A stretch of DNA of 4,423 bases. Origin: a virus (lineage: Duplodnaviria; Heunggongvirae; Uroviricota; Caudoviricetes). Position 1 is the first letter of the stretch. Each line of letters starts with the position of its first letter. The position numbers and the translations under genes are program-made. The notes below the pieces were generated by a model. It worked only from the letters and a program-made list of their open reading frames with translations. It was not told where the DNA came from and made no database searches. Where the stretch lies: IMG/VR virus record IMGVR_UViG_2531839239_000021; one strand, 5' to 3'. Positions 1,550 to 4,423 of the stretch are shown piece after piece.

Positions 1550-1766
1550 GGCTACCTCATCTGGTGCCGAACCTTCCTCCGGATATAATCTGTGGTTCCC
1601 AATCGACAGAACCAGAGGAGGTTCGACATGTATTTTTTGAAAAGCCTTTATCAGGCTCATGTATTAAATGTTGCAGCAACAAACCGCTGGTGTAACAGCC
1701 CCGAAATGCTCCCGGATTACAGAGCCTGGCTGCGCGCCGAAACATACCTTCGTCTCGACATATTGA

Positions 1767-2276
1767 TTAGCGAACTTCAAAAAGAGACTGCATCCATTCA
1801 TAACCTTCAGGGTATCGACGCTGTTCGCATTCTGGTATCGCGCCATAGTGCTCTCTCAATAATTGAAGTGCGTCATCTCTCTTTTTCTGAACTGATTTTC
1901 TTGCTTCAACCAGCTCTGGAATCAGCGAATATCCCGCCGGAAGTGATCCAATACCCACCTCATGTTGACGAGCAGTTACAAGATGTGCCATACAACCAGC
2001 GTGCTGGATTGACTCCCTGCTCAGAGGCTGAATGGGATCACTCTCTGCTGAAGAAATACCAAGATTTGTATAATCCTCAATAAGCCCGGCACACGCTTCT
2101 GCATCAGCCAGCTTTATTCTGGTTTCCTTGCGCTGTTCTCTGGCTGACAAACGCCAGAGCAGCGCATTAGCTTTATGTATCAACCACTCTGCCAGCTCCA
2201 CATCAGATAAACCGCCACGCCAGATGTGCGGACTGTTTTCGTAAACGCTCAGTGTCAATTTTTTGTCATTACTCAT
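1767..2276 (-). CDS. Hypothetical protein, 169 aa, between the YdaT-like gene and the replication initiator
   Basis: Minus-strand ATG at 2276 (MSNDKKLTLSVYENSPHIWRGG...), 13 nt after the YdaT-like stop, with a weak GGGT upstream; the track's GTG at 2327 would overlap the YdaT-like gene by 38 nt. Co-directional with the flanking operon. In the first 60 codons about 64% of first codon positions are purines (33% G), which is gene-like. No family recognised. It competes with antisense plus-strand ORF 1592/1628..2083, so confidence is moderate. Confidence 0.55.
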   Translation of the reverse strand: MSNDKKLTLSVYENSPHIWRGGLSDVELAEWLIHKANALLWRLSAREQRKETRIKLADAEACAGLIEDYTNLGISSAESDPIQPLSRESIQHAGCMAHLVTARQHEVGIGSLPAGYSLIPELVEARKSVQKKRDDALQLLREHYGAIPECEQRRYPEGYEWMQSLFEVR

Positions 2277-2289
2277 ATTTATTACCCAA

Positions 2290-2715
2290 TTAATGCACAG
2301 CCAGAGTGTTTCCTGCCGGGCCACCACGATTCATCTGATCGAACAGAACGATCGCTGATGCAACGAAATCATCAATATCTTTCACCAGCCGTTCCTTCGT
2401 CTCTACCAACTCCCGAAAATAAGCGGAACTGTGGCTGCGCATTCGGGCCACCAGCGGAGGCGGCATCGCTTTTTCGATCGCTGGTAACAACGCCTGAATT
2501 TTTTTAACCGCATCAGGAGTGTCTTTCTCCACCCAGCGGAAAATTTTCTGAGTATTGCGAGCCATGGCTTCCGGATGGCTGTCGTCATACAGTTCCGGGA
2601 ACGTCATTCCCAGCTCGAAATACGCTTTGGTAATTTTCGCAGCCGGTACTTTTTCGCCGTCCGGATGCGCCCAGACATTCATCGCCATGCGGATGTGTTC
2701 ATGCTTGATTTTCAT
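2290..2715 (-). CDS. ydaT: YdaT-like protein (Rac-prophage YdaT family; reported as the CII-equivalent of Rac-type switches), 141 aa
   Basis: Minus-strand ORF MKIKHEHIRMAMNVWAHPDGEKV...NTLAVH. The start ATG shares the 4-nt ATGA overlap with the stop of the upstream YdaS-like gene (2715..2712). The N-terminal MKIKHEHI and the position directly after a ydaS-like gene match my recollection of Rac YdaT; family call from memory, not a search. Confidence 0.65.
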   Translation of the reverse strand: MKIKHEHIRMAMNVWAHPDGEKVPAAKITKAYFELGMTFPELYDDSHPEAMARNTQKIFRWVEKDTPDAVKKIQALLPAIEKAMPPPLVARMRSHSSAYFRELVETKERLVKDIDDFVASAIVLFDQMNRGGPAGNTLAVH

Positions 2716-3014
2716 GAATCAACTCCATCAGATAAGCATGCACTACAATCACCTTCAGCATGAACTACATGTGTTTGCCCCAAACGAATGCCGCTCGCAT
2801 ACTCAGGCCAAATAAGCTCCCAATCATGGGGTCGTAGCTCCGCCCTACTTACTTGGCCTTCCGTCGCAGATTCGATCATAAGGGCGCGGGTTGGAGATAT
2901 AGCTGTTCGTCCAGACGCCATTTGCGATAAGTAAGATGGCGATACACCAAGTCTGGCCGCGAATTTCTTAGCATCACCAACCCTTAATGATTTAATAAAC
3001 TCTTTTAATGTCAT
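2712..3014 (-). CDS. ydaS: Cro-like HTH regulator of the YdaS family, 100 aa
   Basis: Minus-strand ATG at 3014 preceded by CGAGGAAGGT (SD). Translation MTLKEFIKSLRVGDAKKFAARLGVSPSYLSQMASGRTAISPTRALMIESATEGQVSRAELRPHDWELIW... aligns with my recollection of E. coli Rac YdaS (LGVSPPSVNQW...AIERATRGEVLCEELRP). Transcribed divergently from the repressor-like gene, as for cro. Confidence 0.8.
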   Translation of the reverse strand: MTLKEFIKSLRVGDAKKFAARLGVSPSYLSQMASGRTAISPTRALMIESATEGQVSRAELRPHDWELIWPEYASGIRLGQTHVVHAEGDCSACLSDGVDS

Positions 3015-3042
3015 ACCTTCCTCGGTTTAGTGTTTTTTTGCG

Positions 3043-3072
3043 AGTTTAGTGTTTAATAAACCATTAAGTCAA
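3043..3072 (-). promoter_or_regulatory. PR-like leftward promoter for the ydaS-like operon, with an embedded 11-bp palindromic operator
   Basis: Minus-strand -35 TTGACT (plus coordinates 3072..3067), 18-nt spacer, -10 TAAACT (3048..3043). The perfect odd palindrome GTTTAATAAAC (3051..3061) lies in the spacer. Predicted transcript start is about 22 nt upstream of ATG 3014. Confidence 0.55.
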
Positions 3073-3076
3073 GTAT

Positions 3077-3105
3077 TTGCTTGTTTAGTGATTACTAAAG
3101 ATAAT
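3077..3105 (+). promoter_or_regulatory. PRM-like rightward promoter for the repressor-antitoxin-toxin operon; predicts a leaderless mRNA
   Basis: -35 TTGCTT (3077..3082), 17-nt spacer, -10 GATAAT (3100..3105). The spacer holds the near-palindrome TTTAGT-GATT-ACTAAA (3084..3099). The -10 ends 6 nt before ATG 3112, and there is no SD upstream of that ATG. Confidence 0.5.
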
Positions 3106-3111
3106 TACCAC

Positions 3112-3483
3112 ATGCAAAAAAAAGAAATTCGCCGTTTACGTCTCAAGGAGTGGTTTAAAGATAAAACTCTGCCACCCAAAGAGAAGAGCTACCTATCTCA
3201 ACTAATGAGTGGGAGAGCCTCGTTTGGAGAAAAGGCTGCCAGAAGAATAGAGCAAACATACGGGATGCCGGAAGGGTATCTGGATGCGGAATACGCAGAA
3301 CAACCGGGGGGTTCTCCACCACATGCAGGGTTAACGTCTAATCAACTGGAATTATTGCAGATTTTTTCAGCCTTCCCTGAGGATGAGCAACGCCAGATAA
3401 TCAGCGAGTTAAAGCAGAAAAAAGAATCAATGGAAGATCTCATAGCGAGATGGATTGCGGCGCAAAAATGCCGCCGCGCCTGA
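3112..3483 (+). CDS. paaR: HTH transcriptional regulator in the CI-repressor position; first gene of a three-component TA operon (PaaR-like), 123 aa; the track's GTG at 3049 is a possible but less likely start
   Basis: ORF MQKKEIRRLRLKEWFKDKTLPPKEKSYLSQLMSGRASFGEKAARRIEQTYGMPEGYLDAEYAE... Divergent from the cro-like gene and followed within 20 nt by the antitoxin and ParE genes. Contains the motif SYLSQLMSGR, which is also present in the YdaS-like protein. The paaR name is my recollection of the E. coli O157:H7 paaR-paaA-parE systems and is not verified. Confidence 0.7.
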   Translation: MQKKEIRRLRLKEWFKDKTLPPKEKSYLSQLMSGRASFGEKAARRIEQTYGMPEGYLDAEYAEQPGGSPPHAGLTSNQLELLQIFSAFPEDEQRQIISELKQKKESMEDLIARWIAAQKCRRA

Positions 3484-3503
3484 GTTATAAAACCGGAGGA
3501 AAC

Positions 3504-3695
3504 ATGAATAGAGCCCTTTCACCAATGGTTTCTGAATTTGAAACCATTGAACAAGAAAACAGTTACAACGAATGGCTGCGTGCGAAAGTAGCAACGAGCC
3601 TTGCAGATCCGCGCCCAGCAATTCCCCATGACGAAGTTGAGCGCAGAATGGCAGAACGCTTTGCTAAGATGCGCAAGGAACGGAGCAAGCAGTAA
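3504..3695 (+). CDS. paaA: Small antitoxin of a ParE-type toxin-antitoxin pair (PaaA-like), 63 aa
   Basis: ATG 3504 preceded by GGAGGA (3495..3500). Translation MNRALSPMVSEFETIEQENSYNEWLRAKVATSLADPRPAIPHDEVERRMAERFAKMRKERSKQ. The TAA stop (3693..3695) is 1 nt before the toxin ATG. Size, charge pattern and position immediately upstream of a ParE-family gene fit an antitoxin. The track ORF 3450..3695 includes an unlikely N-terminal extension. Confidence 0.8.
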   Translation: MNRALSPMVSEFETIEQENSYNEWLRAKVATSLADPRPAIPHDEVERRMAERFAKMRKERSKQ

Positions 3696-3696
3696 A

Positions 3697-3975
3697 ATGT
3701 TACCCGTGTTATGGCTTGAAAGCGCAGATACCGACCTAGATGATATAACTAGTTATATTGCTCGTTTCGACATAGATGCGGCTGAACGCTTATGGCAGCG
3801 ATTAAGGGGTTGTGTGCTGCCGTTATCCGAACATCCGTATTTATACCCACCAAGCGACAGAGTACCTGGCTTGCGTGAGATTGTAGCCCACCCTAACTAT
3901 ATAATTCTATACCGCGTAACAACATCAAGCGTTGAAGTAGTAAACGTGATCCACGCAAGACGCCAGTTTCCCTAA
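3697..3975 (+). CDS. parE: ParE/RelE-superfamily toxin (ParE-like), 92 aa
   Basis: ATG 3697. Translation MLPVLWLESADTDLDDITSYIARFDIDAAERLWQRLRGCVLPLSEHPYLYPPSDRVPGLREIVAHPNYIILYRVTTSSVEVVNVIHARRQFP has the ParE/RelE hallmarks (W..A..DL..I..YI, GLREI, YRV, V.NVIHARR). The track ORF 3601..3975 begins at an upstream ATG inside the antitoxin gene and is not the likely start. Confidence 0.88.
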   Translation: MLPVLWLESADTDLDDITSYIARFDIDAAERLWQRLRGCVLPLSEHPYLYPPSDRVPGLREIVAHPNYIILYRVTTSSVEVVNVIHARRQFP

Positions 3976-3993
3976 CTTTCACTACCAATAGAA

Positions 3994-4039
3994 ACATAAC
4001 AACCGCAACGACTTTATCAAAAGCGTTGTGTTTGTTATG
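3994..4039 (+). terminator. Imperfect 16-bp inverted repeat downstream of the toxin gene; candidate weak terminator or protein-binding site
   Basis: CATAACAACCGCAACG (3994..4009) and CGTTGTGTTTGTTATG (4024..4039) are reverse complements apart from two positions (one a G-U wobble in RNA), with a 14-nt loop. The stem is A/T-rich and no clean U-tract follows, so terminator function is uncertain. Confidence 0.3.
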
Positions 4040-4056
4040 TCCCGCGGTTTAGTTTT

Positions 4057-4096
4057 TACTTGACTTAAGTTTAATGTTTATTAAACTAAAAATACC
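4057..4096 (+). promoter_or_regulatory. PL-like rightward promoter/operator unit, an inverted copy of the PR-like unit at 3041..3075
   Basis: -35 TTGACT (4060..4065), 16-nt spacer, -10 TAAACT (4082..4087). Palindrome GTTTATTAAAC (4076..4086) overlaps the -10. The 12-mer TACTTGACTTAA (4057..4068) is identical to the minus-strand sequence at 3064..3075; GTTTAGT at 4047..4053 and ACTAAA at 4085..4090 echo the half-sites of the 3024..3099 region. Confidence 0.5.
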
Positions 4097-4423
4097 AACC
4101 CACCCCGCCCCACAGAACGCAGGGAAATACTTCGAGTTACCCGGCAGTGGTCAGGGGTTAAGTAGCCAGCCCGAGGCGTATGAACATGACGGCAGGGTTC
4201 AACTTTAATAACTATGCAGCAGTTTTTTGTTCCGCTACCCCGGCGTTAAGGGGAAACAGAGGGTTTCTCAGTGGGCGAAGTCAAACATCAGAATGGAAGG
4301 CATCCCGGGATCGGCAAAGAAGCAGCAATGGCGCTTTATATTGACATCAGCGCCATTGCAGGACAGGTAAGAGTTATCAGAGCGGTAACTAAGCGGTATG
4401 CGCCTTTACTTCAGAAAGTCTCT

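Follow-up and report, generated by a model that had tools for sequence, protein, structure and literature searches.

The PaaR2 and YdaS regulators of a CP-933P-type prophage switch share a decapeptide that very likely forms the recognition helix of both

The regulators PaaR2 and YdaS, encoded divergently in a stretch of 4,423 nucleotides of viral DNA (record IMGVR_UViG_2531839239_000021, referred to below as the window), have a decapeptide in common, and we consider it very likely that this decapeptide is the recognition helix of both proteins, which compete on the same operators in a CP-933P-type switch. The locus is the immunity region of a lambdoid cryptic prophage of the CP-933P type from E. 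coli O157:H7: positions 2600–4200 have 100% DNA identity to O157:H7 chromosomes, and the order is ydaT, ydaS, a 97-bp OR, paaR2, paaA2, parE2 and OL/PL, as indicated in Table 1. To the left of about position 2290 lie the replication genes, which are mosaic when compared with the O157:H7 genomes matching the immunity region. Both the PaaR2/YdaS/YdaT switch of CP-933P (Sp12) and the three-component toxin-antitoxin operon paaR2-paaA2-parE2 have been described (Hallez 2010; Jurenas 2021, PMC8630535; Prolic-Kalinsek 2023, PMC9986795). The window holds that very system: the proteins, operators, promoters, leaderless paaR2 and PL are all the same, with no difference within the immunity region. We note that the RefSeq name for PaaR2 is still 'hypothetical protein'.

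Table 1. Features of the immunity region, in window coordinates.
Feature	Position	Strand	Basis or comment
ydaT, CII analogue	2290..2715	-	Pfam YdaT_toxin
YdaT box TTGATT-N6-AATCAA	2705-2722		Read in sequence; agrees with the site published in PMC9986795
ydaS, Cro analogue, 100 aa	2712..3014	-	ORF; Pfam YdaS_toxin and HTH_3; PDB identity
YdaS decapeptide SYLSQMASGR, S27-R36	2907..2936	-	Helix alpha3 (26-33) and S-G-R cap
OR, 97 bp, ydaS-paaR2 interval with divergent PR and PRM and operators	3015..3111		Repeats, pattern and promoter scans, PMC8630535
Weaker 18-bp operator GTTTAGTGTTTTTTTGCG, only left half-site good	3025..3042	+	Repeat family; downstream of PR -10
18-bp operator GTTTAGTGTTTAATAAAC	3044..3061	+	Exact GTTTA-N8-TAAAC; over PR -10 and spacer
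PR	-35 TTGACT 3072..3067, -10 TAAACT 3048..3043	-	Promoter scan
PRM	-35 TTGCTT 3077-3082, -10 GATAAT 3100-3105	+	Read in sequence
18-bp operator GTTTAGTGATTACTAAAG	3083..3100	+	GTTTA-N8-TAAAC with one mismatch; fills PRM spacer
paaR2, CI analogue, 123 aa	3112..3483	+	ORF from ATG at 3112; PDB identity
PaaR2 decapeptide SYLSQLMSGR, S26-R35	3187..3216	+	C-terminal two thirds of helix 22-33 and G-R cap
paaA2 antitoxin	3504..3695	+	Pfam PaaA2, E=1e-19
parE2 toxin	3697..3975	+	Pfam ParE_toxin, E=1.9e-16
OL/PL	4047..4087	+	Repeats, promoter and pattern scans
OL operators GTTTAGTTTTTACTTGAC and GTTTAATGTTTATTAAAC	4047-4064; 4069-4086	+	Repeats, pattern scan; over PL hexamers
PL	-35 TTGACT 4060-4065, -10 TAAACT 4082-4087	+	Promoter scan

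YdaS is 100% identical to PDB 8c7k (100/100 residues) and 8co2, entries named 'YdaS from E. coli O157:H7 cryptic prophage CP-933P'. It scores 46.5 bits against the Pfam family YdaS_toxin (PF15943, cut-off 30) and 29.8 bits against HTH_3 (PF01381, cut-off 23). The AlphaFold2 model has helices at residues 3–9, 14–22, 26–33 and 41–50, and fits the solved N-terminal domain 8co2 to 0.6 Å. The motif stands in the context LGVSP-SYLSQMASGR-TAIS; in the model, SYLSQMA falls within the third helix of a canonical helix-turn-helix, which is capped by SGR. This placement agrees with the HTH_3 alignment, in which YdaS residues 16–50 fall on profile positions 13–47. The next structural neighbours of the model are Xfaso-1 Cro, HigA bound to DNA, lambda cI-operator, P22 c2-operator and 434 Cro.

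The N-terminal helix-turn-helix domain of PaaR2, of some 60 residues, is joined by a linker to a helical oligomerisation domain at the C-terminus. Residues 1–66 are identical to the N-terminal-domain construct PDB 7nkv (E=5e-41), in which the construct tag starts after residue 66, and 8c3l matches over residues 1–57. The AlphaFold model has helices at residues 3–14, 22–33 and 40–49, and fits the solved N-terminal domain 8c3k to 0.7 Å over 58 residues. The context here is PKEK-SYLSQLMSGR-ASFG, and motif residues 26–33 fall in helix 22–33, which is aligned with helix 3 of YdaS. No Pfam family reaches threshold for PaaR2, the best being HTH_31 with 14 bits against a cut-off of 27, and weak HTH matches occur in only 2–3 of 23 family members; no Pfam model covers the N-terminal domain. 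Foldseek with the PaaR2 model gave nothing significant besides PaaR2 itself (others E>0.09), and since the non-PaaR2 matches are at this level we did not file the protein under a fold family. The N-terminal domains of SinR, ClgR and DdrO superpose on the model at 2.3–2.7 Å with Foldseek E-values >0.1.

The original prediction, which pointed out the decapeptide common to the two regulators and suggested that it might be the recognition helix, is borne out on both counts: 8 of the 10 residues are identical, and in both AlphaFold models, matched by solved structures at 0.6–0.7 Å, the motif lies in the recognition helix (helix 3 of YdaS and the helix of PaaR2 aligned with it, 22–33) and not outside a DNA-binding helix. 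In the 434 repressor-operator complex, residues Q28, Q29, S30 and Q33 contact bases and backbone. When the proteins are aligned with 434 repressor on the G-K/R cap, the residues that we take to stand at these positions are K25, S26, Y27 and Q30 in PaaR2, and P26, S27, Y28 and Q31 in YdaS. PaaR2 and YdaS are identical at three of the four, and we infer that the shared S, Y and Q contact bases or backbone in an equivalent way in PaaR2 and YdaS.

In the mechanism that we propose, PaaR2 would act as the functional CI and YdaS as the functional Cro, with DNA-binding domains that are probably distantly homologous, XRE-type helix-turn-helix domains. The decapeptide would provide the recognition helix (core S-Y-L-S-Q) followed by a closing Gly-Arg/Lys cap. 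Three 18-bp operators lie in OR (starting at 3025, 3044 and 3083) and two in OL (4047 and 4069); because the operators overlap PR, PRM and PL, PaaR2 and YdaS are expected to compete for the same DNA, which would make the switch bistable. The outcome of binding, which is opposite for the two proteins, and the order of site filling would then be set by the parts in which they differ. Candidates are the residue before the motif (PaaR2 K25, YdaS P26); the later half of the helix, LM in PaaR2 and MA in YdaS; the long pre-helix loop in PaaR2; and the oligomerisation domains, which would be the C-terminal helices in PaaR2 and have no counterpart in YdaS.

The DNA between and beyond the regulator genes has the layout of a lambdoid switch, with divergent repressor and cro genes, repeated operators between them that overlap both promoters, and a second operator set with a PL-like promoter beyond the repressor operon (4047–4087). 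Matches to GTTTA-N8-TAAAC with at most two mismatches occur 10 times against 1.7 expected, and a count of 10 was reached in 0 of 200 shuffles. The window also contains five GTTTAGTG-type repeats, and all five of these good units share one orientation. The weaker operator at 3025..3042 is probably the repeat called IR4 in PMC8630535. The PRM hexamers are positioned such that transcription would start on the ATG at 3112, and the paaR2 mRNA was found to be leaderless by 5' RACE (PMC8630535).

Binding has been studied by Jurenas et al. (2021, mBio, PMC8630535) using EMSA, DNase I footprinting and reporters. The sites of PaaR2 and YdaS overlap within the 97-bp region; the DNase I footprints cover 78 bp for PaaR2 and 27+32 bp for YdaS, and the 18-bp inverted repeats have the half-site consensus GTTTAGTAA. 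PR, PRM and PL are each repressed by PaaR2 and by YdaS, bistability was observed, and in reporter assays PL933P is repressed about 100-fold by either protein; no response to mitomycin C is reported. The same paper remarked on the mixture of direct and inverted repeats, and left the exact PaaR2 and YdaS binding sequences for later determination. The overlapping footprints support the earlier suggestion that both regulators act on the same operators, an interpretation that is essentially published. The finding is thus correct but ordinary, and has little discovery value, as the switch is published, the structures are solved and the competition of both regulators for the operators is known. In the literature searched, which took in papers citing PDB 7NKV, 8C3K, 8C3L, 8C7K and 8CO2 and may miss the structures' own papers, we found no statement of a recognition-helix motif common to PaaR2 and YdaS. 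The identity of the motif offers a simple molecular reason for the competition, and singles out residues S26/Y27/Q30 of PaaR2 and S27/Y28/Q31 of YdaS.

We then consider how far the pairing extends. A scan with one peptide pattern found 64 genomic loci with relatives of the PaaR2 N-terminal domain, from Gamma- and Betaproteobacteria; the pattern contains the PaaR2 motif, so that some of the conservation seen in the PaaR2 helix comes from the scan itself, while the Cro partners and operators are free of this selection. In about 50 of the 64 loci a YdaS-like gene lies in divergent orientation, its product mostly carrying S[YF]LSQ[ML]; this count rests on the unfiltered ORF list and sets aside any picking of partners by motif similarity. 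The PaaR2-type repressor carries S[YF]xSQL, and a conserved GTTTAG..CTAAAC operator pair lies between the two genes. The intergenic arrangement AGTTTA-N6-ACTAAAC ... GTCAAG ... TTGCTTGTTTAG-N5-TACTAATCAAAAT is kept in 40 non-redundant loci, ranging from Enterobacterales to Burkholderiales and Nitrosomonas. The co-conservation over the 64 loci, which lends indirect support to binding of the same operators by both proteins, is to be read as a count without phylogenetic control. A 75%-identical PaaR with its own paaA and parE (P0004/L065) was considered as the CP-933M paralogue PaaR1 of O157:H7 and set aside: among the 12 listed of its 19 genomes, none is O157:H7 (one is O157:H16).

The pairing varies in the Pasteurellaceae and Orbaceae, where the sequence of the Cro helix is SYLRQVETG, AFLRHIEIG or PFLRNMAIG; the CI-like helix is still SYISQL, and the operators are unchanged (GTTTAG...CTAAAT). 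One of these loci, L039 from Gilliamella, even has the same GTTTAGTGTTTAATAAAC as the window at 3044–3061. Identical helices are therefore unnecessary for common operators; they are consistent with them. The motif is also recognisable in the wider family: among the 150 best YdaS relatives from an unbiased representative search, 84% have Q31 and 74% have S30, and the Xfaso-type Cro reads SAISQW. (A word-seeded search gave only 14 YdaS relatives, biased to motif sharers, and the frequencies are those of the unbiased search.) S-x-[LI]-S-Q and a G-[KR] cap are thus common in this HTH family, and some of the identity is due to scaffold or family history and not to specificity.

It is conceivable, but on the whole unlikely, that this is the main explanation, and that the decapeptide is a generic XRE-type HTH scaffold or family signature (S-x-L-S-Q-hydrophobic-x-x-G-R) that does not imply the same specificity. 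PaaR2 oligomers might, for example, bind the 18-bp inverted repeats and YdaS the direct GTTTAGTG units, the footprints overlapping by interleaving. The family-wide S..SQ and G-[KR] cap, the single orientation of the five best units in the window and the lineages in which the Cro helix diverges over unchanged operators all fit this reading. However, both proteins would even so recognise one 7–8 bp unit, GTTTAGT. Over about 50 loci this unit is conserved jointly with the CI-like helix and, in most cases, with the Cro helix, and the same three promoters are repressed by both proteins. We favour the reading in which the shared decapeptide is the recognition helix of two competitors. The common orientation of the five units suggests that PaaR2 and YdaS may nevertheless use different arrangements of them. 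One possibility is that the same helix, set on an octameric scaffold in PaaR2 and on a small Cro scaffold in YdaS, which is presumably monomeric in solution, reads inverted and direct arrangements of one unit. If true, this would account for the puzzling mixture of direct and inverted repeats in the 2021 paper.

The short length of the match is all that speaks for a chance likeness between two unrelated small proteins, which we regard as extremely improbable. When both proteins were shuffled 5000 times with their composition preserved, the best 10-residue window had 7 identities 13 times, and 8 never. BLASTP gave an ungapped alignment of PaaR2 with YdaS over 46 residues (16/46 identical, E=3e-4), with half of the 16 identities inside the decapeptide, giving 80% identity inside (8/10) and 22% outside (8/36). 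Profile-profile comparison of the two families with hhalign aligned PaaR2 25–51 to YdaS 26–52, with a probability of 82% and E=1e-5. Homology of the two DNA-binding domains is therefore detectable and is concentrated in helix 3; in addition, the pairing recurs in dozens of independent loci.

The likeness was described from the start as protein-level conservation and not as DNA duplication, and the codons bear this out. The motif is encoded in YdaS (2936..2907) as TCT TAC TTA TCG CAA ATG GCG TCT GGA CGA, and in PaaR2 (3187..3216) as AGC TAC CTA TCT CAA CTA ATG AGT GGG AGA. These are identical at 17/30 nucleotides, and 6 of the 8 identical residues have different codons, including two Ser switches between AGY and TCN and an Arg encoded by AGA in one and CGA in the other. 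Although the genes are only about 250 bp apart in inverted orientation, a recent local duplication or gene conversion between them is ruled out by the Ser codon-box switches and the differing codons, no inverted DNA repeat links the two segments, and at the protein level the pairing is ancient and extends over two proteobacterial classes.

More tentatively, the PaaR2/YdaS module could be an old and widespread immunity cassette in which the recognition helix of the repressor and the half-site GTTTAGT have been virtually frozen. The range proposed for such a cassette is Enterobacterales, Pasteurellales, Orbales, Burkholderiales and Nitrosomonadales. Were it frozen, the basis of heteroimmunity would need to lie elsewhere than in helix 3, in the operator spacer, flanking residues or oligomerisation, or else many such prophages would cross-repress one another across genera. 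The triad of PaaR2-type helix, YdaS-type helix and GTTTAG..CTAAAC operators at about 50 loci has modest value for annotation, and its recurrence raises the question of cross-immunity among these prophages.

The system can be compared with several known switches. The 434 repressor and Cro are also a homologous all-alpha HTH pair, with nearly the same recognition helices and the same operators bound in a different order of affinity, and 434 Cro is one of the structural neighbours of the YdaS model listed above. The 434 helices, QQSIEQLENG in the repressor and QQSIQLIEAG in Cro, are identical at 6/10 positions. The identity of the PaaR2 and YdaS helices is higher (8/10), whereas the domain outside the motif has diverged further (22%). 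In contrast to the 434 pair, PaaR2 has no S24 autocleavage domain, and its model is missing helix 1 and the tight turn that belong to the canonical five-helix domain.

The CI/Cro/CII region of lambda has the same gene order and likewise has divergent promoters with multiple operators of 17–18 bp. In both systems PL, about 1 kb away, has a second set of operators, the repressor mRNA is leaderless, the repressor gene is followed by an accessory operon (rexAB in lambda and paaA2-parE2 in the window) and, as reported in the literature, the repressor forms octamers. Lambda differs in that lambda Cro has an alpha+beta fold and a recognition helix unlike that of lambda CI, that PaaR2 has no RecA-dependent cleavage domain, and that a POU-like YdaT takes the place of CII. 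The RacR/YdaS/YdaT region of the Rac prophage has the same ydaS-ydaT operon architecture, divergent from the repressor; however, the Rac YdaS is only 26% identical, and RacR was not found as a PaaR2 relative in our searches.

PaaR2 gives no match to Pfam Peptidase_S24, and its C-terminal domain is helical in the model. The S24 (LexA-like) peptidase, a classical autocleavage domain, is by contrast fused to a PaaR2-type N-terminal domain in repressors of about 210 aa from Serratia, Yersinia and Erwiniaceae, in which the N-terminal domain is 56–80% identical and contains KSYLSQLM. Peptidase_S24 is matched in 6 of 23 aligned members of the PaaR2 family. As the domain is present in these relatives and missing from PaaR2, PaaR2 is the non-cleavable variant in a CI-like family that is canonical in other respects.

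The plus-strand regulator is identical to PaaR2 of solved structures (PDB 7nkv, 8c3k, 8c3l), and the minus-strand regulator is identical to YdaS of the cryptic prophage CP-933P (structures 8c7k, 8co2). Positions 2600-4200 match many E. coli O157:H7 chromosomes at 100% identity and phage Evi at 98%. Taken with the gene content listed in the table, these matches therefore identify the window as the immunity region of a CP-933P-type lambdoid prophage, which runs in the order replication genes, ydaT, ydaS, the 97-bp OR (the ydaS-paaR2 intergenic region), paaR2, paaA2-parE2 and OL/PL. The ydaT gene is the CII analogue, ydaS the Cro analogue and paaR2 the CI analogue, while paaA2-parE2 takes the position that rexAB has in lambda.

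Genes, promoters and operators of the immunity region, in window coordinates
Feature	Position	Strand	Basis or remark
YdaT_toxin	2290-2715	-	Pfam
YdaT box TTGATT-TTCATG-AATCAA	2705-2722		sequence reading; PMC9986795; ydaS/ydaT junction, includes ydaT start codon
YdaS_toxin/HTH_3	2712-3014	-	Pfam
100-aa ORF with LGVSP-SYLSQMASGR (YdaS)	2712-3014	-	ORF reading
Operator	3025-3042		just downstream of PR
Operator	3044-3061		overlaps PR
PR	-35 TTGACT 3072..3067; -10 TAAACT 3048..3043	-	promoter scan and direct reading
PRM	-35 TTGCTT 3077-3082; -10 GATAAT 3100-3105	+	promoter scan and direct reading
Operator	3083-3100		occupies PRM spacer
123-aa ORF with PKEK-SYLSQLMSGR (PaaR2)	3112 (ATG)-3483	+	ORF reading
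PaaA2	3504-3695	+	Pfam
ParE_toxin	3697-3975	+	Pfam
Operators	4047-4064; 4069-4086		overlap PL
PL	-35 TTGACT 4060-4065; -10 TAAACT 4082-4087	+	promoter scan and direct reading

Counting codons from both starts confirmed the decapeptide at nt 2936..2907 (minus strand) in YdaS and 3187..3216 (plus strand) in PaaR2, with the codons of the original prediction. By direct comparison the two copies share 8 of 10 residues and 17 of 30 nucleotides, and six of the eight identical residues have different codons, including two AGY <-> TCN serine-box switches. This rules out DNA duplication or gene conversion and places the conservation at the protein level, as had been proposed. Shuffling both proteins 5000 times with their composition preserved never gave a 10-residue window with eight identities; the maximum was seven, reached 13 times. 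BLASTP pairs PaaR2 and YdaS in an ungapped 46-residue alignment (E=3e-4), with 8 of the 16 identities inside the decapeptide, and profile-profile comparison of the two families pairs PaaR2 25-51 with YdaS 26-52 (82% probability, E=1e-5).

In the AlphaFold2 model of YdaS, for which the family alignment was the input, helices span 3-9, 14-22, 26-33 and 41-50, and the fit to the solved structure 8co2 is 0.6 A. The model's next structural neighbours are Xfaso-1 Cro, DNA-bound HigA, the lambda cI and P22 c2 operator complexes, 434 Cro and N15 Cro. Since helices 14-22 and 26-33 make the helix-turn-helix, SYLSQMA belongs to the recognition helix, which is capped by S-G-R; the Pfam HTH_3 register, with YdaS 16-50 on profile positions 13-47, is consistent with this. 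The PaaR2 model superposes on 8c3k at 0.7 A and has helices at 3-14, 22-33 and 40-49, then a low-confidence linker and C-terminal helices at 76-86 and 90-122. Motif residues 26-33 fall within helix 22-33, the counterpart of YdaS helix 3 in the alignments, where helix 40-49 likewise pairs with YdaS helix 4. The motif is thus part of the recognition helix in both proteins, on which the expectation of common half-sites had depended. Upstream of the motif, PaaR2 has a single long first helix and the seven-residue loop FKDKTLP where YdaS has a short G-V-S turn, which may be why no Pfam HTH model matches PaaR2 above threshold. In 434 repressor the DNA-contacting residues are Q28, Q29, S30 and Q33. 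In a register that we take from the G-[KR] cap, these positions would hold K25, S26, Y27 and Q30 in PaaR2 and P26, S27, Y28 and Q31 in YdaS, presumably making the two proteins the same at three of the four.

Units of the GTTTAGTG type occur five times, at 3025, 3044, 3083, 4047 and 4069, always in plus orientation; given this single orientation, the half-site arrangement used by PaaR2 and by YdaS may be the same or different. Perfect copies of the 18-bp pattern GTTTA-N8-TAAAC stand at 3044-3061 and 4069-4086, and the copy at 3083-3100 has a single mismatch. A search tolerating up to two mismatches gives 10 matches against 1.7 expected, a number reached in none of 200 shuffles. An operator-like CTTAATGATTTAATAAAC with two mismatches also lies in the first codons of ydaS (2983-3000), sharing its right half, TTTAATAAAC, with the 3044-3061 operator. 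Directly after the parE2 stop and directly before OL/PL is a strong stem-loop (3994-4040) whose arms are 22 nt long and whose free energy is -23.4 kcal/mol (z-score -5.6 against shuffles); no clear U-run follows it, and it may be a terminator or insulator between the paaR2-paaA2-parE2 operon and PL.

That both regulators bind the same operators is experimentally established for the published PaaR2/YdaS switch of CP-933P. PaaR2 and YdaS each specifically shift the 97-bp fragment (Jurenas et al. 2021, PMC8630535), and their DNase I footprints, of about 78 bp for PaaR2 and 27 and 32 bp for YdaS, overlap each other and both promoters. The same study described four 18-bp inverted repeats with half-site consensus GTTTAGTAA, the overlapping pseudosymmetrical repeats being named operators OR1-OR3, together with repression of PR, PRM and the PL-type promoter beyond parE2 by each protein and bistability of the locus (PMC8630535). 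It also reported that paaR2, like lambda cI, is transcribed into a leaderless mRNA. In the window, the PRM elements are positioned for transcription to begin at the ATG at 3112. A description of YdaT and of its TTGATT-N6-AATCAA box has been published (PMC9986795). The shared decapeptide is confirmed, and its interpretation as common operator reading is supported. In the literature searched we found no mention of the shared recognition-helix motif and no citations of the N-terminal-domain PDB entries of PaaR2/YdaS. The present analysis adds the placement of the motif in both structures, solved or predicted, the codon and shuffle statistics, and the co-conservation of both helices with the operator across taxa, together with counter-example lineages.

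PaaR2 has 156 relatives with a common N-terminal domain in two architectures, one short with a helical C-terminal domain, as in PaaR2, the other longer, at about 210 aa, and carrying an S24 LexA-like peptidase domain; PaaR2 is therefore the non-cleavable variant of an otherwise canonical CI-like family. There is an annotation gap here: no Pfam model covers this N-terminal DNA-binding domain, and RefSeq/PGAP labels PaaR2 (3112-3483) 'hypothetical protein', despite solved structures and >150 relatives, of which some are fused to the S24 peptidase. A genome scan gave 64 loci in Enterobacterales, Pasteurellaceae, Orbaceae, Burkholderiales, Nitrosomonas and others, in about 50 of which a YdaS-like protein is the first divergent upstream ORF (unfiltered ORF list). 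Helix 3 of the YdaS-like partner is mostly S[YF]LSQ[ML]A.G, and the repressor has KS[YF][LIF]SQL. Repressor-helix conservation is partly selected for, because the PaaR2 motif is in one of the two scan patterns; Cro partners and operators were outside this selection. Alignment of 40 non-redundant intergenic regions, anchored on the PR -35, gave the consensus AGTTTA-N6-ACTAAAC-N5-GTCAAG-TATTTGCTTGTTTAG-N5-TACTAATCAAAAT, which as aligned corresponds to the same two operators and two promoters. An unbiased YdaS search found 922 relatives at E<=1e-3; in the best 150 representatives Y28 is present in 55%, L29 in 67%, S30 in 74%, Q31 in 84% and G35 in 78%, and thus SYLSQ is a hallmark of this YdaS subfamily.

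The motif is partly family-wide, Xfaso-type Cro having SAISQW in its place. In Pasteurellaceae/Orbaceae loci the Cro helix is SYLRQVETG, SFLCQVEKG, AFLRHIEIG or PFLRNMAIG, while the repressor is still SYISQL and the operators are still GTTTAG...CTAAAT; in a Gilliamella locus (L039), GTTTAGTGTTTAATAAAC is identical to window 3044-3061. Because the Cro helix differs while the operators are the same, helix identity is not required for shared operators; identical helices suffice to explain them, and do so parsimoniously. Lambda is similar, in that CI and Cro have dissimilar helices and common operators. The closest classical analogue of the shared helix is the 434 repressor/Cro pair, with 6 of 10 residues of helix 3 identical.

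Several related loci show variations of this arrangement. In non-O157:H7 E. coli (L065), a second paaR-paaA-parE module adjoins a ydaS/ydaT pair; its PaaR is 75% identical to PaaR2 and its PRM-proximal operator TTGCTTGTTTTGCGATTACTAAAGATAAT differs from that of the window at only two positions, so that cross-regulation between the modules seems possible. In Xenorhabdus khoisanae (L015) an inserted tandem array of ~21-bp GTGTTATGTGTACGGTAAATA-like units separates the PRM-proximal operator from the start of the repressor gene and enlarges the intergenic region to 404 bp; the insertion that locus L008 has at this point is shorter and contains inverted repeats. In Photorhabdus luminescens DSM 3368 (L004) the YdaS-like gene has lost, through an internal deletion, precisely the turn of the HTH and the recognition helix (…EAKLLLRGLGYPVPP…). 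This locus still has an intact PaaR2-like repressor and intact operators, suggesting that repression of the prophage is locked in.

The window is mosaic (1-2290 versus 2290-4256): O157:H7 genomes that match the immunity region have different genes left of ydaT, strain TR01 having genes for a 321-aa HTH protein and an ATP-binding protein, and the best whole-window match among complete E. coli genomes is 97.7% over 86% of the length. Long ORFs at 1592-2083 (plus) and 1767-2327 (minus) overlap on opposite strands, and a Pfam search matched neither. An 'ECs1072 family phage-associated protein' is annotated in related genomes somewhere beneath the match, so that of the two ORFs the one on the minus strand may be the real gene. 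Direct repeats of 11 bp (AAGCCCCTT-type) form two clusters (1073-1114 and 1329-1381) inside the 400-aa O-like replication gene (458-1660, minus), which also has a CCTGTTC repeat tract (1028-1071) encoding a EQEQEQEKEQEQ stretch; by analogy, the repeats look like origin iterons inside an initiator gene, as in lambda O.
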